Below the pieces are notes generated by a model. The model was given only the letters and a program-made list of their open reading frames with translations, had not been told where the DNA came from and made no database searches. A stretch of 39,628 nt of DNA from a virus (lineage: Duplodnaviria > Heunggongvirae > Uroviricota > Caudoviricetes). The position numbers were made by a program, and so were the translations under genes. Positions 27,283 through 38,177 of the stretch are shown here, piece by piece. Each line of letters begins with the position of its first letter. Positions within the stretch are counted from its first letter, which is position 1. The stretch is taken from IMG/VR virus record IMGVR_UViG_2565956762_000004; one strand, written 5' to 3'.

Positions 27283-27648
27283 TTATAACTCCATATCTAA
27301 ATGAATATCGAGAGTAGAAAGGCAACCATCAATGAATCCCTCTGCTAACAATATTTCTATACGGATTAATTTCTCATCCTTTCCTTGTATTTTGGCAATC
27401 TTCCGCTTTGAAAACCCGTACAAATAATGCGCAACCAGTAAAGAATGCTCATAAGGTTTTCTTTTTTTTAGTTGCTCCAAGCAACTTTCAATAATTAGCG
27501 CATCATTATCTGAACAAGCTTGGCGTGCCTTACTGGTATAGGGAAGAAGTCCCTTAAACCCAGCAGCTATAGGCGAATAGTCCACTCCTGAGCTATCACT
27601 AGCTGCCCATGCCCCCCAACGTTCAAGGATGATCTGAATATCACGCAT
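27283..27648 (-). CDS. late antiterminator Q (QuuD-like)
   Basis: MRDIQIILERWGAWAA...IAAGFKGLL resembles the short Q family; position upstream of the lysis cassette. Confidence 0.7.
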   Translation of the reverse strand: MRDIQIILERWGAWAASDSSGVDYSPIAAGFKGLLPYTSKARQACSDNDALIIESCLEQLKKRKPYEHSLLVAHYLYGFSKRKIAKIQGKDEKLIRIEILLAEGFIDGCLSTLDIHLDMEL

Positions 27649-27665
27649 CAAATTTCTCCACAAAA

Positions 27666-31972: not shown

Positions 31973-32538
31973 GCGTTAGTTTCTCCACAACCAGAAGCAA
32001 TCGACGCCACGACGCCCGGAGCTGCACACTCGCGGGCGTCATTACTTTCTGAAATGCAAAAAATTTTGTAGACAAGTGCTGCATGCTCCTGCAGCTTCGA
32101 AATTGAGAGATACAGCTCGTCGTTAATTGCTGTCTTCTCATGCGGTTCCACTACACCGTCTTCGATTGCTGAACGAATCTGTTTTGAATAACTGCCGATC
32201 TGTTCAATGACTTCCAGCAGACGCTGGTTAATATCGGCGTTGTCCACATCCTCGACGTCAGGAAGAGACACAAAGACGCCATTTGCAGACTGCGCCACAG
32301 CATCAGCAATGAAGTGAGTGCCACCAGCACGCTGTAAAACCATTGCCCATCCCAGCGGGAAAATCTGATCGCCATCTGCACGAAGGCGGTTGAATAAAGC
32401 GTTTTCTGTTACATCGAGCCAGTCAGCCGCTTCAGCGTAACCACCCGGCAACGCCGCGATAGTTTTTCTGACAGCTTTCACGTACCACTCAGGCTGTTTT
32501 TCTACTTTCCAGTGATGCTTACCCACGATTAGCCTCAT
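31969..32538 (-). CDS. hypothetical early protein (189 aa; size and position match e14 YmfL from memory)
   Basis: First large gene after cro on the rightward-equivalent operon. Confidence 0.45.
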
Positions 32539-32569
32539 CGTTCTGTGGTTAAAAATTGAAAGTGTTCTG

Positions 32570-32770
32570 CTAATCTTTCGGATAGATATCCGGTCTTAAG
32601 TCAGATTTCGTAATTGCACCTGACGTGCATTGCTCAAGTTTTTTAGCCAGCACAAAACTGGCTTTTTTATAGCCATTGAAAACCAGCCGTAAGTAGCCAG
32701 GTGTTGAGCCAACTTTTCCGGCCAACTCGCCCTGCTGTTCTTTGGTTAAAGAGTCCCAATACGCTTTCAT
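32570..32770 (-). CDS. Cro-like repressor (66 aa, start at MKAYWDSL)
   Basis: Small HTH protein divergent from cI; GGAGGT Shine-Dalgarno ahead of the ATG. Confidence 0.55.
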   Translation of the reverse strand: MKAYWDSLTKEQQGELAGKVGSTPGYLRLVFNGYKKASFVLAKKLEQCTSGAITKSDLRPDIYPKD

Positions 32771-32775
32771 ACAAT

Positions 32776-32845
32776 ATGTACCTCCGGTGTACATATTACA
32801 TGATTGAAATGAACCTTCAAGATACTTGTACCTTAACGGTACAAG
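32776..32845. promoter_or_regulatory. OR-like operator/promoter region with two palindromes
   Basis: ATGTAC-N7-GTACAT at 32776-32794 and CTTGTACC-N5-GGTACAAG at 32825-32845; candidate minus-strand promoter TTGAAG-N16-TAATAT (32820-32793). Confidence 0.45.
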
Positions 32846-32860
32846 GGTTTTAATTTCGTT

Positions 32861-33535
32861 ATGAAAACAATCCATGACATCCGGCGGTCTAACGCCAGAA
32901 AACTGAGAGATGGTGTTGGCGGGAATTCTTCCTTTGCCACTATGATTGATCGCGAGCCAACCCAGACCAGCAGGTTTATGGGAGATGGTGCTACTAAAAA
33001 TATCGGTGACAACATGGCACGACACATCGAAAAATGTTTCGACCTGCCTGTCGGATGGCTCGATCAAGAACACCAGACAACGAACATCACAAAAAAACCT
33101 GATGTTTCAATCACTAATAAACAAATCACATTAGTCCCTGTCATATCATGGGTACAGGCCGGAGCATGGAAAGAAGTTGGATATTCTGAGGTTGATTTGA
33201 GCACAGCAGAAACGTATCCCTGCCCTGTACCCTGTGGGGAAATGACTTATATCTTGCGGGTGATAGGTGATTCAATGATTGATGAGTACCGCCCGGGAGA
33301 CATGATTTTTGTCGATCCTGAAGTACCTGCCTGCCACGGTGACGACGTTATTGCATTGATGCACGATACAGGTGAAACCACCTTCAAAAGGTTGATAGAA
33401 GATGGGACACAGCGTTATCTCAAAGCGTTAAACCCAAACTGGCCTGAGCCTTACATTAAGATCAACGGTAATTGCTCTATAATTGGAACTGTGATTTTCT
33501 CAGGAAAACCAAGAAGATACAAAATCAAAGCCTAA
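32861..33535 (+). CDS. cI-like repressor (HTH plus S24 LexA-like peptidase domain)
   Basis: N-terminal HTH, C-terminal VIGDSM serine motif and downstream Lys; divergent from cro. Confidence 0.8.
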   Translation: MKTIHDIRRSNARKLRDGVGGNSSFATMIDREPTQTSRFMGDGATKNIGDNMARHIEKCFDLPVGWLDQEHQTTNITKKPDVSITNKQITLVPVISWVQAGAWKEVGYSEVDLSTAETYPCPVPCGEMTYILRVIGDSMIDEYRPGDMIFVDPEVPACHGDDVIALMHDTGETTFKRLIEDGTQRYLKALNPNWPEPYIKINGNCSIIGTVIFSGKPRRYKIKA

Positions 33536-33547
33536 TCAATGTTTATG

Positions 33548-33571
33548 AACCTGCTTCGGCAGGTTTTTTTA
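33548..33571 (+). terminator. intrinsic terminator after cI
   Basis: AACCTGC-TTCG-GCAGGTT stem followed by TTTTTTT. Confidence 0.6.
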
Positions 33572-33574
33572 TAC

Positions 33575-33603
33575 TTGACAATGTACCCTTGAGATACATA
33601 ATG
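33575..33603 (+). promoter_or_regulatory. pL-like early promoter (TTGACA-N17-ATAATG) flanked by ATGTACC operator half-sites
   Basis: Consensus -35, 17-bp spacer, 5/6 -10; ATGTACC occurs at 33581 and 33601. Confidence 0.5.
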
Positions 33604-33691
33604 TACCTAAGAGAAACAACAAACAGGCAGGACGCCCACGAAGTAGCCGCCTGGGGCATATGAAGTCCAGGATGATTCGTTAGCAACAAAA

Positions 33692-33724
33692 AAGCGCCCT
33701 ACAGGACGCTTAGCTCTTTAACAA
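33692..33724 (+). promoter_or_regulatory. nut-like antitermination element: hairpin plus rrn-type boxA GCTCTTTAACAA
   Basis: 12/12 match to the rrn boxA core as I recall it, preceded by AAGCG-N10-CGCTT hairpin, about 110 nt downstream of the pL-like promoter. Confidence 0.4.
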
Positions 33725-33769
33725 TCTGGTCCCCATCAACAAGTAACTGATAACTTGAGGAGGTGTGAA

Positions 33770-33976
33770 ATGCACAAAACAGAACCCAAAATCGTCGCGC
33801 CCGGATACACAAATGAGGAAATTTACGAGTGGATGGCAAAGAAGCTGGCAGCTATAAACCAGCTTCGTGAAGTGCTGTCTTATCGACAGGAAACAATAGA
33901 CTCCTTAAAAAAACTGGATCAGGAAATCACGGTTTTATCACAGGATGTTACTTTAGATATTGTGCAGACAAATTAG
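33770..33976 (+). CDS. small early protein (68 aa) in the N-gene position, not Arg-rich
   Basis: Strong GAGGAGG Shine-Dalgarno before the ATG; no arginine-rich motif. Confidence 0.4.
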   Translation: MHKTEPKIVAPGYTNEEIYEWMAKKLAAINQLREVLSYRQETIDSLKKLDQEITVLSQDVTLDIVQTN

Positions 33977-34382
33977 GATCCCATTCATTTTCGTCAAAAT
34001 CATCAAAGTGATGAATTTGTGATCTCCAGTCTCGATAATCTAAAAATTTCTGGGCGGTTACGCTTATTTTATCAAGTGTGAGTTCATCCTGAATTGAAAG
34101 AAGAAGTTCATCAAATTTCATCTCATTAATCTGTTTTGGCATCCAGTGATGCTTCATCAGAATAAGGTGAACCAGAGCCTTTTTCCCATTCAACTGATTA
34201 TAGGGAGTGCCGAATTTCTTCCGGTGCTCATGTAAGACAAGATCCAGAAGAGTAAGTAATGTTGCCCTTGATTCCACTTTGCTTATTTCGACTGATGACA
34301 CTACCCCACTGATTTCAATGCCCCGATACTTTCCAACATTTTCACAGTGGGATTTGTACAACGTGTAGATATTACCGGACAT
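33948..34382 (-). CDS. reverse-oriented low-GC moron, hypothetical 144-aa protein
   Basis: Complete ORF antisense to the early operon; no motif recognised. Confidence 0.5.
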   Translation of the reverse strand: MSGNIYTLYKSHCENVGKYRGIEISGVVSSVEISKVESRATLLTLLDLVLHEHRKKFGTPYNQLNGKKALVHLILMKHHWMPKQINEMKFDELLLSIQDELTLDKISVTAQKFLDYRDWRSQIHHFDDFDENEWDPNLSAQYLK

Positions 34383-34397
34383 TTCTTTTCCTTTTGC

Positions 34398-34449
34398 GTT
34401 GTTGGGGATAACCAGATTAACCGAATCCTTGTTGTTGGGGAATAACCAG
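34398..34449. repeat. two direct repeats GTTGTTGGGG(A)ATAACCAG, 33 bp apart, upstream of the minus-strand moron
   Basis: Seen directly at 34398-34415 and 34431-34449. Confidence 0.35.
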
Positions 34450-34713
34450 GTCCACCTCGCCTGATGTGGCTAAAAGCAGGCACATAACAGCTAAGTATTT
34501 TCAACCAGAGAGAATCCTTAGCGTTGTGGTGAATGCTGCTCAGCGCACGCGGGTTAAGGTTGAGGCTGACAGTCGACCTTCTGTGGATACCCACCCGCCT
34601 GGTGTGCAACCTTCGCCAGGCACCGGGAGGCACCCGGCACCACAACTTTATGCTGTGTGTAGTCTTGGCGGTACCAGCTTGTACCCTTGCTTCCGGCTGG
34701 TACCGTCCTTTTT

Positions 34714-34802
34714 ACAAAACAGAGAAGAGCATCACCGGACGACGGGCTCATAACTCAATCCATCCGGGCGGCTGCCACCGCAGGTGTTCTTCTCTGTTTT
34801 GT
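34714..34802 (+). other. long imperfect hairpin (17-bp arms ACAAAACAGAGAAGAGCA / TGTTCTTCTCTGTTTTGT, ~53-nt GC-rich loop) within a GC-rich non-coding island
   Basis: Arms are reverse complements with one mismatch; a second 9-bp-stem hairpin lies at 34670-34704. Confidence 0.4.
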
Positions 34803-34850
34803 GGAGAAACTAATCGGCCTTGCAGGGTCGATATGATGAGGAGCAGCAAA

Positions 34851-35213
34851 ATGGCTAGCGAACGCAGTACTGATGTGCAGGCATTTATCGGGGAGCTGGA
34901 CGGCGGCGTATTTGAAACCAAAATCGGCGCAGTTCTCAGTGAAGTCGCTTCCGGTGTGATGAACACGAAAACCAAAGGTAAGGTCTCACTCAACCTGGAA
35001 ATCGAACCATTTGATGAGAACCGAGTGAAAATCAAACACAAACTCTCATATGTTCGCCCGACTAACCGCGGGAAAATTTCTGAAGAAGACACCACCGAAA
35101 CGCCGATGTATGTCAATCGCGGTGGTCGCCTGACTATTCTGCAGGAAGACCAGGGACAATTACTGACTCTTGCCGGTGAACCTGACGGAAAACTCCGCGC
35201 AGCAGGTCATTAA
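34851..35213 (+). CDS. hypothetical early protein, 120 aa (YfdP-like by size and neighbours)
   Basis: GAGGAG 7 nt before ATG 34851; the longer ORF-track N-terminus is Arg/Cys-rich and non-protein-like. Confidence 0.5.
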   Translation: MASERSTDVQAFIGELDGGVFETKIGAVLSEVASGVMNTKTKGKVSLNLEIEPFDENRVKIKHKLSYVRPTNRGKISEEDTTETPMYVNRGGRLTILQEDQGQLLTLAGEPDGKLRAAGH

Positions 35214-35278
35214 TATCGTTCTTAATTAACTGATTATTTATCTCATCACTGAATATCTTTATATAGTGAGGACTTATT

Positions 35279-36103
35279 ATGTCTCAGAACTTAGACGCAA
35301 CCGCAATTAATCAAATCCATGCTATTATTTCTGCTCAGGGTGTTAATGAAATTATCAGTAAGATTGGTGCCGATGCTGTAGCATTGCCTGAGAATTTCCG
35401 CATTCATGATCTGGAAAAATTTAATTTAAATCGCTTCCGTTTCCGTGGTGCGCTTTCCACTGCCAGCATCGATGACTTTACCCGTTATTCTAAAGATCTT
35501 GCAGATGAAGGCACCCGCTGCTTTATCGATGCTGATAATATGCGTGCCGTCAGTGTGCTTAACCTGGGTACTATTGATGAACCAGGTCACGCAGATAACA
35601 CCGCCACTCTCAAACTGAAAAAGACAGCACCGTTCTCTGCACTGTTGTCTGTTAACAGCGAGCGTAACTCCCAGAAGTCACTGGCAGAATGGATTGAAGA
35701 CTGGGCCGACTACCTTGTGGGTTTTGATGCTAATGGTGACGCTATCCAGGCAACAAAAGCGGCTGCGGCTGTCCGTAAAATCACGATTGAAGCAAACCAG
35801 ACCGCTGATTTTGAAGATAATGACTTCAGCGGCAAACGCTCCCTGATGGAGTCTGTCGAAGCGAAGACCAAAGACATTATGCCAGTGGCATTTGAATTTA
35901 AATGCGTTCCGTTTGAAGGTCTGAAAGAACGTTCTTTTAAATTACGCCTCAGCATTATCACTGGCGATCGTCCTGTACTTGTTCTGCGCATTATTCAGCT
36001 GGAGGCGGTGCAGGAAGAAATGGCTAACGAATTTCGCGATCTGCTTGTTGAGAAATTCAAAGACAGCAAAGTAGAAACCTTTATTGGTACTTTCACCGCC
36101 TGA
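35279..36103 (+). CDS. DUF2303-like early protein, 274 aa (YfdQ-like)
   Basis: Size and gene order with the following HD-domain gene match the yfdQ-yfdR pair I recall from a K-12 cryptic prophage. Confidence 0.5.
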
Positions 36104-36231
36104 TTTGATTACTGCAAATGCCCCTGCGGGGGCATTTATGGAAACGTAATTAACTCAATAATCTCCGGATGGTGAGGGCTTCCTTTTACCAGAATTCAGT
36201 GCGGTGCAGCGCAAATAACGTGGAGAACAAA

Positions 36232-36780
36232 ATGTCATTTATTAAAACTTTTTCTGGGAAGCATTTTTATTATGACAGGATAAATAAAGACGACATCGTT
36301 ATTAACGATATCGCGGTTTCCCTTTCAAATATCTGTCGCTTTGCAGGACATCTTTCACACTTCTACAGCGTCGCCCAACATGCGGTTCTTTGCAGCCAAC
36401 TGGTACCGCAGGAATTTGCTTTTGAAGCGTTAATGCATGATGCAACAGAAGCGTATTGCCAGGACATCCCCGCTCCACTGAAACGCCTTCTTCCTGACTA
36501 TAAACAGATGGAAGAAAAAATAGACGCCGTAATCCGTGAGAAATACGGGTTACCCCCGGTTATGAGTACGCCCGTGAAATATGCCGATCTCATCATGCTG
36601 GCAACCGAACGCCGCGATCTCGGGCTTGATGATGGCTCTTTCTGGCCTGTACTGGAAGGCATCCCGGCAACAGAGATGTTCAACGTGATTCCACTGGCAC
36701 CGGGCCATGCCTACGGGATGTTTATGGAACGCTTTAAAGAGCTGCATAAGATGCATAAACAATCCAGACAGCGAAATTAA
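36232..36780 (+). CDS. HD-domain phosphohydrolase (YfdR-like 5'-deoxynucleotidase), start at MSFIKTF
   Basis: H...HD metal-binding motif (AQHAV ... ALMHDATEAY). Confidence 0.6.
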   Translation: MSFIKTFSGKHFYYDRINKDDIVINDIAVSLSNICRFAGHLSHFYSVAQHAVLCSQLVPQEFAFEALMHDATEAYCQDIPAPLKRLLPDYKQMEEKIDAVIREKYGLPPVMSTPVKYADLIMLATERRDLGLDDGSFWPVLEGIPATEMFNVIPLAPGHAYGMFMERFKELHKMHKQSRQRN

Positions 36781-36808
36781 CTAGTGAAATAGTTTTGTAG
36801 CAAAAGAA

Positions 36809-37069
36809 ATGAGGTTATCAAAAATGCTTCAAATGCTGACACTTGAGGAATGGGCTGCGGAAAAATACAGAAGTAATCCTCCAAGCGTGTCCACATTGCG
36901 TCGTTATGCTAAGCAGAATTTATTTTGTCCACCGGCAATGAAACAAGGTCGACTATGGCGAGTGCGTGAGGACGCAGAGTTAGTTGGGGAATTAGTTACT
37001 CCTGTCATCAAGAAAAATGATTCTATTATTCTACAAAGGATTTTAAGTAATGGCAGCCAGACCACGTAA
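36809..37069 (+). CDS. excisionase
   Basis: Small basic protein immediately upstream of and overlapping int. Confidence 0.55.
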   Translation: MRLSKMLQMLTLEEWAAEKYRSNPPSVSTLRRYAKQNLFCPPAMKQGRLWRVREDAELVGELVTPVIKKNDSIILQRILSNGSQTT

Positions 37070-38177
37070 AAATAATGTTTCAGTCCCGAACTTGTATCCG
37101 CTTTATAGTAGAAAAGTAAATAAAGTCTATTGGCGATATAAACATCCTGTGACCGGGAAGTTTCATTCTTTAGGCACAAACGAAGCTGAAGCCATTGCTA
37201 TTGCCACTGAGGCAAATTCACGCCTGGCTGAGCAAAGAACCCGGCAGATTCTGGCTATCAGTGACAGGATCGCAACCAGCAAAGGAAAAGCAATCACAAC
37301 GTCAACCTGGTTAGATCGCTATCAAGCAATCCAGGATGACAGACTGGAAAGTGGCGATATAAAGCTAAACACCTATAAACAGAAAGCCAAACCAGTATCC
37401 TTGCTCAGGGAACGAGCAGGAATGAAATTAATTTCATCAGTTGATGTAAGGGATATAGCACAATTACTTGACGAGTATATCACTGCCGGGCAACCGAGGA
37501 TGGCGCAAGTAGTCCGCTCCGTTCTAATTGATGTATTCAAGGAGGCACAACACTATGGGGAAGTCCCTCCGGGCTATAATCCAGCACTGGCAACCAAACA
37601 ACCCAGAAGAAAAATTACCCGACAACGGTTAAGTCTTGAAGAATGGCAAAAAATCTTTGATATCGCAGATGCACGCCATCGTTATATGGGGAATGCCATG
37701 CTGTTAGCACTGGTTACCGGCCAACGGTTAGGTGATATCTCACGTATGAAATTTAGCGATATTTGGGATGATCATCTTCACGTCATCCAAGAAAAAACCG
37801 GGAGCAAAATCGCCATCCCGCTTTCCCTTCGCCTCAATGCAATTAACTGGAGTTTACGCGATGTAGTAGCCCGCTGCCGTGACTATGCAGTCAGCCCATA
37901 CCTTGTACATTTTTTTCGTACTACTTCACAGGCTGAACGTGGCGCGCAAGTAAAAGCCAATACATTGACGATGAATTTCAGTAAAGCGAGGGATTTAGCA
38001 GGCATTGACTGGGGTGAAGGTTCGCCCGCCACATTCCATGAACAAAGATCTTTATCTGAGCGACTTTACGAAGCTCAGGGCGTCGACACCCAAAAACTTC
38101 TGGGACATAAATCGCCTAACCAGACAGCTAAATACCATGATGATCGTGGTAAGGAATGGGCAAAAATCAAGGTTTGA
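37050..38177 (+). CDS. tyrosine integrase (lambda Int family)
   Basis: 375 aa; C-terminal catalytic region LLGHKSPNQTAKYHDD with H/R/Y residues. Confidence 0.85.
   Translation: MAARPRKNNVSVPNLYPLYSRKVNKVYWRYKHPVTGKFHSLGTNEAEAIAIATEANSRLAEQRTRQILAISDRIATSKGKAITTSTWLDRYQAIQDDRLESGDIKLNTYKQKAKPVSLLRERAGMKLISSVDVRDIAQLLDEYITAGQPRMAQVVRSVLIDVFKEAQHYGEVPPGYNPALATKQPRRKITRQRLSLEEWQKIFDIADARHRYMGNAMLLALVTGQRLGDISRMKFSDIWDDHLHVIQEKTGSKIAIPLSLRLNAINWSLRDVVARCRDYAVSPYLVHFFRTTSQAERGAQVKANTLTMNFSKARDLAGIDWGEGSPATFHEQRSLSERLYEAQGVDTQKLLGHKSPNQTAKYHDDRGKEWAKIKV

Follow-up and report, generated by a model that had tools for sequence, protein, structure and literature searches.

A conserved hairpin-boxA module in the early-left leader of an SfIV-type lambdoid prophage: a predicted convergent terminator next to a candidate Nus-factor site

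Organization of the early-left region

A viral DNA of 39,628 nucleotides (nt) from the class Caudoviricetes (IMG/VR record IMGVR_UViG_2565956762_000004; the whole stretch is called the window below) carries, on its plus strand, a boxA element of the type found in ribosomal RNA (rrn) operons, placed one base after a small hairpin and downstream of a promoter that resembles pL of phage lambda. The 1.1 kb around the boxA matches Shigella phage SfIV at 99% identity, and a prophage of E. coli strain 1190 at 100%. Judged from its sequence, the window is a lambdoid prophage of the SfIV/SfV/e14 type in which a Q protein is encoded and N is absent. The plus strand carries, in order, cI/ymfK (a LexA-family repressor gene), an open reading frame (ORF) for 68 amino acids (aa), a converging gene of the ECs1072 family on the minus strand, and then yfdP, yfdQ, yfdR, xis and int. 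The minus strand carries cro/ymfT, ymfL (cII-like), replication genes and a Q-type antiterminator gene (27283-27663, minus; recognized by Pfam and PHROGs). Because of this gene order the plus strand was taken as the counterpart of the lambda leftward operon. The features that surround the boxA are as follows.

32861-33535, plus strand: cI/YmfK LexA-family repressor gene, upstream of pL and on the same strand (ORF; ymfK by PGAP in the 100%-identical strain 1190 locus, cI in the SfIV record)
33547-33566, plus strand: intrinsic terminator of the repressor gene, GAACCTGCTTCGGCAGGTTT and then TTTTATAC (terminator scan; annotated as a terminator in SfV and Ayreon)
33575-33602, plus strand: pL-like sigma-70 promoter, TTGACA-16-CATAAT, matching the consensus at 11 of 12 positions
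33619-33680, plus strand: structured 5' leader RNA, a three-way junction (P1, 33619-33623 with 33676-33680; SL-I region, 33628-33649; SL-II, 33650-33671)
33688-33693, minus strand: run of six A on the plus strand, read as the T-run of the minus-strand terminator
33692-33711, minus strand: hairpin AAGCGTCC-TGTA-GGGCGCTT, predicted intrinsic terminator of the converging accessory gene, the top-ranked terminator-like site
33713-33724, plus strand: boxA GCUCUUUAACAA, an exact and unique match, candidate NusB-NusE binding site on the pL transcript

The promoter was the best promoter-like site within 32000-36500, and a promoter is annotated at the equivalent place in the record of phage Ayreon. Since it lies directly 3' of the repressor gene terminator, as pL does in lambda, it was regarded as the pL equivalent. 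Transcription would start at about 33609, which puts the boxA about 105 nt downstream on the sense strand. A preliminary description, made from the sequence alone, had placed a hairpin and boxA at 33692-33724 behind a pL-like promoter; the coordinates are exact and the promoter is found at the lambda position.

The boxA element

The 12-mer GCTCTTTAACAA occurs once in the window (33713-33724, plus strand), with 0.01 exact matches expected from dinucleotide-preserving shuffles. The five matches with two mismatches are no more than chance would give (6 found in the window, 3.4 expected). The 12-mer includes the NusB-NusE core GCUCUUUA and agrees at all 12 positions with the boxA in the rrnB leader of E. 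coli K-12 (direct sequence comparison), where it is also preceded by a hairpin, in the arrangement GCCGCTGAGAAAAAGCGAAGCGGC-ACT-GCTCTTTAACAA. The nutL and nutR sites of lambda have a shorter sequence, CGCTCTTA, with boxB placed 8 nt beyond it. The element is thus of the rrn type rather than the weaker lambda nut type, as the preliminary description had it; the order of hairpin and boxA also follows rrnB and not lambda nut.

Two classes of known sites can be compared with this arrangement. The rrn leader site (boxB-boxA-boxC, on which rrnTAC forms with NusA, NusB, NusE, NusG, SuhB and S4) shares with the prophage the entire boxA, a hairpin directly 5' of it (spacer of 3 nt in rrnB and 1 nt in the prophage) and a promoter-proximal place on the sense strand ahead of a long untranslated RNA; a phage protein would be unneeded. 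It differs in that the prophage has no conserved boxC-like element, its hairpin is thermodynamically a minus-strand terminator, and its transcript is a phage messenger and small RNA (sRNA) operon rather than rRNA. The boxB of rrn leaders has been reported to be of little importance for antitermination in E. coli (PMC12360218). The nutL sites of lambda, phage 21 and P22 lie where the prophage boxA does, past the repressor gene and close behind pL, and all contain a boxA. The prophage site differs from them in lacking a 3' boxB, an N protein and a nutR partner, and in having the full consensus where lambda has CGCUCUUA. The boxA of phage 21, which is N-dependent, is identical to that of rrn operons (PMC3177189), and a consensus boxA alone is therefore not evidence of N-independence.

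A matching element downstream of the rightward promoter, for which the preliminary description proposed a search, was not found: on the minus strand of the pR operon no boxA-like match was obtained by pattern, core 8-mer or short-word BLAST, save ACTCTTTAACCA (32743-32754, minus). This last sequence was rejected as a nutR, as it has two mismatches, lies within the cro/ymfT coding sequence (codons 6-9) and is at chance level.

Conservation of the hairpin-boxA module

Three independent scans were anchored on the leader 29 nt upstream, on the boxA, or on the hairpin plus boxA (this last across one genome per species), and all three led to the same cassette of about 45 bp: a run of 5-8 A, GCGCCC, a loop of 3-5 nt, GGACGC, TT, a variable base and GCTCTTTAA(C/A/G)AATC. 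This module is found behind at least eight unrelated promoter/immunity regions, ahead of 24-36 unrelated downstream sequences, and in at least 12 genera of Enterobacterales (Escherichia, Shigella, Enterobacter, Citrobacter, Kosakonia, Buttiauxella, Raoultella, Atlantibacter, Cedecea, Scandinavium, Symbiopectobacterium, Sodalis and Mangrovibacter were recorded). At least 80% of the leader-plus-module query was present in 1086 complete genomes of E. coli, and some match to it in 1812 of 5426. In the leader-anchored set, which is unbiased toward boxA, the module was present in 23 of 26 distinct downstream sequences and GCTCTTTAA was exact in 20 of the 22 distinct modules that could be parsed. Variation in the same set falls on the base before the core (C, A or T), on position 10 (C or A), in the hairpin loop and at all positions beyond +14.

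The recurrence of the module across promoters, downstream contexts and genera argues that the boxA is under selection, and given this conservation in many contexts it is probably functional. The contrary reading is that the boxA has no current function, being either a relic of an ancestral nutL or a junction sequence that spreads by recombination together with a useful terminator. Indeed, boxA and terminator always occur together, mosaic phage genomes share junction sequences, and some relatives have no boxA. However, the loop, the base before boxA and position 10 vary freely within the same 45 bp while the 9-nt core is fixed, a pattern that fits the 8-nt NusB-NusE footprint (PMC3177189) and speaks against a neutral relic, as does the recurrence of GCTCTTTAACAATC(TGG) in unrelated phage leaders described below. 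A boxA without function is accordingly considered very unlikely.

The extended boxA GCTCTTTAACAATC(TGG), of 14-17 nt, recurs in many unrelated phage early leaders, directly 3' of strong promoters (viral contigs, loci L128-L233). It often lies 1-3 nt 3' of an unrelated GC-rich hairpin (for example in L141, L171, L186, L222 and L226); the enrichment over control segments was not significant. A hairpin that precedes boxA was also considered as a general rule of phage leaders and was rejected, since such a hairpin was present in 30% of the boxA-anchored matches outside the family, many of which are chance matches in coding sequence, against 15% and 35% in the controls (non-significant).

The hairpin upstream of boxA

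Read on the plus strand, the hairpin is AAGCGCCC-TACA-GGACGCTT (33692-33711) and ends one base 5' of boxA. Read on the minus strand, it has an 8-bp stem with five G-C pairs, a 4-nt loop and a TTTTTTG tail, and it is the best terminator-like site in 32000-36500. In the window it folds with -11.0 kcal/mol as minus-strand RNA, against -6.5 kcal/mol on the plus strand. The minus strand was the more stable in 25 of 26 unique hairpin variants (mean of -11.4 against -7.0 kcal/mol), because a stem pair at alignment columns 82/94, which is a C.A mismatch on the plus strand in 32 of 34 sequences, reads U.G on the minus strand. Runs of 5-8 A, the T-run of the minus strand, are kept in nearly all copies of the module.

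Each of the 36 distinct downstream contexts has a minus-strand ORF (98-255 aa) that stops within 225 nt beyond boxA, usually at 10-30 nt. A converging gene is absent from four relatives in which the leader is present and the module is not (SfV, ST64B, mEp237 and SPN3UB). In the window the converging gene is the following, and no other minus-strand terminator was found between its stop codon and 33711 by the terminator scan.

33948-34382, minus strand: converging accessory gene for an ECs1072-family phage-associated protein of 144 aa (PGAP name; phrog_5286), the transcript of which would end at 33711-33692

The hairpin is with high probability the intrinsic terminator of this converging gene. 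As such it would insulate pL and cI from converging accessory transcription, and the C.A mismatch would keep it weak for transcripts from pL. A strand-asymmetric terminator built on a U.G/C.A pair would be a compact design principle for one-way insulation. The hairpin that the preliminary description noted next to boxA is thus present, 1 nt 5' of it, but by energies, T-run and converging ORFs it is primarily a terminator of the opposite strand. At least 20 different loops were found on its near-invariant stem; such a hypervariable loop is the opposite of the loop-specific recognition by N and makes the hairpin unfit as a boxB of the N type.

Immediately after boxA (window 33725-34400; loci L008-L275) lies a hot spot at which accessory genes of diverse kinds are found, transcribed toward pL. 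The families seen there include ECs1072, a coiled-coil plus zinc-ribbon protein, a small membrane protein ending in WFAGDLP and a lipoprotein-like protein; they look genuine and diverse, and no Pfam or PADLOC assignment was obtained for them. Two direct repeats, GTTGTTGGGGA(A)TAACCAG, lie 33-34 bp apart at 34398-34456, just upstream of the start of the ECs1072-family gene on the minus strand, and could be an operator/promoter element of that gene.

The leader RNA upstream of boxA

The leader at 33619-33680 starts about 10 nt from the presumed transcription start. It is found in SfV, SfII, e14, ST64B, mEp237, mEp460, SPN3UB, ZF40, YeP1 and AH07, with or without the boxA module, and is a more universal element of pL than the boxA. 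In an alignment of 32 sequences the P1 helix takes four unrelated forms (ACGAA/UUCGU, GCGAA/UUCGC, CCACC/GGUGG and UCAUC/GAUGA) and the SL-II stem at least five. Compensatory double changes were found in 10 of 17 leader pairs, and the covariation score was 0.379, against 0.107 for shuffles (0 of 500 reached 0.379) and at most 0.091 for slid controls. P1 and SL-II were predicted independently by RNAalifold, and the fold is assigned to the plus strand because of G.U pairs specific to that strand. A 28-nt core of SL-I is invariant from phages of E. coli to phages of Pectobacterium. The structure was seen only in the comparative analysis, the z-score of single-sequence folding being about 0. No match at the gathering threshold was found in Rfam over the whole window, and with E up to 10 only noise was obtained over 33400-34100.

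Antitermination by put RNA is factor-independent and is blocked by mutations in the zinc-binding domain of the RNA polymerase beta-prime subunit. Like putL of HK022, the leader is a structured RNA, some 60-70 nt long, located where the pL transcript of an N-less lambdoid phage begins (PMC9378689). It differs from put in having no sequence similarity to it, in its architecture (a closing helix and two hairpins, where put has two open stems), in being present as a single copy per genome with none in the pR operon, and in being accompanied in the prophage by a boxA. A BLASTN search with HK022 putL returned 21 phage records (HK022, HK75, HK639, phiEt88 and others), none of them SfV, ST64B or of the e14 type. 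Only the 8-mer CAGGAUGA is common to put and the leader. Membership of the leader in the put family, suggested by this 8-mer and by a put-like apical hairpin, was rejected, as that hairpin is broken in e14, L085 and L048, the covariation supports a different SL-II and the BLASTN search with putL returned none of these phages.

In a rival explanation, the three-way junction leader is the real cis-acting antiterminator of pL, acting like putL on RNA polymerase or on some other host factor and without a phage protein, and the boxA is auxiliary or dispensable. Within this phage class it is the leader that stays constant, boxA or not, and it begins within about 10 nt of the presumed transcription start, as putL does (PMC9378689). 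Its P1 and SL-II covary strongly, the invariant SL-I core suggests a conserved host target across genera, and a strong intrinsic terminator lies downstream of it. A survey of the N-less class speculated on a put-like mechanism, with no RNA identified (PMC12315714). Against this explanation stand the lack of sequence similarity to put, the different architecture and the lack of a second copy in the pR operon; moreover, a 5' leader structure could equally be an element of mRNA stability, and the base-level conservation of boxA wherever the module occurs would be left unexplained. Such a role of the leader is considered rather unlikely.

The 8-mer CAGGACGC occurs twice, once in SL-I of the leader (33629-33636) and once within the terminator hairpin, in its 3' arm (33702-33709), and it is conceivable that the copy in SL-I forms an alternative pairing with the 5' arm of the hairpin. 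The sequence GCAGGACGC also opens the pL transcript of lambda (L277). A second conserved leader module, AACGCGCAGYAGG...AAACGTTCCGCCAGCCTGGCGATAAGG, was found alone, after the three-way junction leader or before the hairpin-boxA cassette (L238, L244, L256, L267, L278 from mEp237, L280 from SPN3UB, L235 and L254). Because of these differing arrangements the leaders appear to be built of interchangeable RNA modules.

Search for a phage-encoded partner

Among the proteins of the window, no N-like protein was detected with Pfam and PHROGs, which recognized only the Q-type antiterminator. When all ORFs of 45 aa or more were scanned for an arginine-rich motif at the N terminus, only out-of-frame or internal artefacts came up, none of them in the early operons. 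The genome paper of SfIV likewise states that N, cII and cIII are absent from SfIV, SfII and SfV (PMC3851460). The absence of an N-like protein, claimed in the preliminary description, is supported by all of these, and its account of the first downstream gene as one for a 68-aa protein with no arginine-rich motif is also correct.

33770-33976, plus strand: orf68, first plus-strand gene after boxA, not N-like, with a strong ribosome-binding site (phrog_1744, function unassigned; no Pfam match)

The first genes after boxA differ completely between relatives. Only some contexts have orf68, a diverged homologue of which lies at the same position in locus L159. Clustering of the ORFs of 86 loci revealed no protein family that co-occurs with the module except the repressor and pR-operon genes. 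Since no phage protein co-occurs with the boxA, any partner is likely to be encoded by the host.

The boxA and the adjacent or leader hairpins could instead form a nut-like site, for an N analogue that has gone unrecognized or for N supplied by a co-resident lambdoid prophage. The boxA lies at the position of nutL, phage 21 combines N-dependence with an rrn-identical boxA (PMC3177189), and N proteins, being small and very diverse, are easily missed. Yet no conserved hairpin follows boxA, the sequences diverging 5-15 nt downstream; the upstream hairpin combines an invariant stem with many loops; the early operons contain no ORF with an arginine-rich motif, the first downstream genes differ, no family co-occurs, and there is no nutR. 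A nut-like site is thus quite improbable. The nut system of mEp021 was also compared and was set aside as unrelated to the prophage boxA locus.

The untranslated stretch downstream of boxA

Between the end of orf68 and yfdP (33977-34850, 874 nt) no credible coding sequence was found on the plus strand. This stretch is made up of sequence antisense to the ECs1072-family gene, with a segment at 34250-34400 in which C exceeds G on the plus strand, and of an sRNA-like element. In most other contexts of the module there is likewise no plus-strand ORF for 0.7-1 kb.

34493-34716, plus strand: STnc100/PasD-like prophage sRNA, 224 nt (Rfam RF02076, 41.9 bits, E = 8.9e-8, full-length match to the model)
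34851-38177, plus strand: yfdP, yfdQ (DUF2303), yfdR (5'-deoxynucleotidase), xis and int (PGAP on the identical locus; Pfam and PHROGs matches)

As its score of 41.9 bits is below the gathering score of 47, the element at 34493-34716 is regarded as a relative of STnc100 and not as a certified member. Its fold energy is -90.3 kcal/mol (z-score of -3.7), and it ends in a strong intrinsic terminator with a 12-bp hairpin (stem 34667-34707, T-run 34708-34713). A homologous STnc100-like element is present in ST64B (L279, about 2540-2770).

The boxA might also act as a negative element of the suhB/hisG type: by binding close to the ribosome-binding site of orf68, NusB-NusE would repress translation and favour termination by Rho, which would hold expression of xis and int from pL at a low level. 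Excision of the related KplE1 prophage is reportedly controlled by Rho termination (Menouni 2013, as cited in PMC12360218), and a boxA in the 5' untranslated region of suhB was reportedly the subject of work by Baniulyte et al. in 2017. Like the prophage copy, the suhB boxA lies in an mRNA leader, tens of nt upstream of a start codon, and acts with host Nus factors; it differs in that it promotes Rho termination and is autoregulatory, and in that most copies of the module have no ORF downstream on the same strand. Enhancement of Rho termination by boxA-Nus complexes is documented for suhB and hisG (PMC12360218), and the prophage boxA ends 33 nt from the Shine-Dalgarno sequence of orf68. Because most contexts have no plus-strand ORF after boxA, the converging ORF ending 10-30 nt away, repression of translation is not the general function of the module, and the negative role is held to be unlikely.

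Proposed role of the module

The explanation favoured overall, with a probability of about 0.5, is that of a two-way module in which a minus-strand terminator is joined to a boxA that recruits Nus factors for anti-Rho read-through from pL. The module of about 45 bp would stand at the junction of the pL leader and the hot spot for genes transcribed toward pL. On the minus strand, the hairpin and T-run would end transcription from the ECs1072-family gene and so keep it out of the repressor gene and pL. In the other direction, the C.A mismatch would weaken the plus-strand hairpin, such that transcripts from pL pass, and the boxA emerging next would bind host NusB-NusE (S10). By analogy with rrn operons and CRISPR arrays, a NusA/NusG/SuhB-type complex would then assemble on RNA polymerase from the bound NusB-NusE, and this complex would protect the polymerase from Rho over the 874 nt of untranslated RNA up to yfdPQR, xis and int. 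The parts of this scheme differ in strength. That the boxA is a functional Nus site is rather likely; that its effect is anti-Rho read-through is an even bet. The sequence identity, position and conservation of the elements, the strand asymmetry of the hairpin, the arrangement of the genes, the absence of N and the length of the untranslated stretch are observations; binding of NusB-NusE, assembly of the complex and resistance to Rho are inferred. For a selectively maintained boxA of the rrn type, a role that depends on host factors only is the best explanation.

Long untranslated and antisense RNA is a classic substrate of Rho, and an rrn- or CRISPR-like role of Nus factors against Rho is plausible because the pL transcript runs untranslated for 874 nt before yfdPQR-xis-int. 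At rrn operons and at CRISPR arrays, boxA-Nus complexes block Rho, a factor that suppresses the transcription of prophages and of antisense RNA (PMC7665894, PMC12360218). The boxA of CRISPR arrays in Salmonella and other bacteria (Stringer et al., 2020; PMC7665894) is, like that of the prophage, a stand-alone element near the 5' end of a long untranslated transcript, and a block of Rho by host Nus factors only has been proposed or shown for it. The prophage copy differs in that it lies in an early operon and is fused to a convergent terminator, its untranslated RNA being the antisense of a gene plus an sRNA.

Several observations weigh against the two-way module. SfV, ST64B, mEp237 and mEp460 have no boxA and keep the conserved structured leader RNA just upstream, so that the boxA is not the sole or universal element of early-left control; it appears to be an add-on tied to head-on accessory genes rather than a core control element. 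Among these relatives SfV and ST64B are functional without boxA, and ST64B also has an untranslated stretch of about 600 nt that includes its STnc100-like element. Small minus-strand genes are present in e14, YeP1 and AH07, yet these have no module. The near-invariance of the hairpin stem, next to an SL-II that covaries freely, is not explained by a plain terminator. No GU-rich boxC-like element is conserved 3' of boxA, where only AATC(TGG) is kept before the sequences diverge. Complexes of the rrn type are known mainly for resistance to Rho, and boxA alone may not overcome the strong intrinsic terminator at 34667-34713 that lies in the path; an rrn-type complex is not known to defeat such a terminator. 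Finally, at suhB and hisG boxA-Nus complexes promote Rho termination rather than prevent it (PMC12360218).

The preliminary description had suggested that early antitermination may rely on host Nus factors alone or on an unrecognized factor. The rrn type of the boxA, its conservation and the absence of N are retained from that interpretation; a consensus boxA is no proof of N-independence, the hairpin has been reassigned and the pR operon has no copy.

Wider implications

How N-less lambdoid phages sustain early transcription is an acknowledged gap, for which this locus offers two mutable candidates, the rrn-identical boxA and the leader RNA. Some form of these two occurs in roughly one complete E. 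coli genome in three, and cultured phages of Shigella, Salmonella, Yersinia, Pectobacterium and Pantoea have it too. What would be new is the context proposed here for stand-alone boxA/Nus antitermination, itself of a known kind: its fusion to a strand-asymmetric convergent terminator. If the proposal is true, N-independent antitermination by Nus factors, so far described for rRNA and CRISPR arrays, would extend to prophage excision operons, the tolerance of phages for defence or moron genes inserted head-on in the early operon would be explained, and the efficiency of prophage induction would be linked to the host Nus/SuhB machinery. More speculatively, N-less lambdoid phages (SfV, SfIV, ST64B, LLS, mEp460 and the e14 type) might share a protein-free RNA system of two parts for the early-left operon. 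The leader would act on RNA polymerase or a conserved host factor, in a put-like role with an unrelated fold, and the rrn-type boxA-terminator cassette would manage traffic in both directions wherever a head-on gene has been inserted. This broader scheme is put forward tentatively and is more doubtful than the two-way module.

Annotation of the distal region

Two ORFs annotated in SfIV overlap the conserved sRNA region, namely SfIV_34 in its N-terminal part of about 106 aa (34533-34850, plus) and SfIV_35 (34301-34645, minus). SfIV_35 and this N-terminal part of SfIV_34 are probably not genes. The 226-aa ORF of SfIV matches its PHROG family only from residue 101, the upstream part being a frameshifted pseudogene according to PGAP, which places the start of yfdP at 34851.

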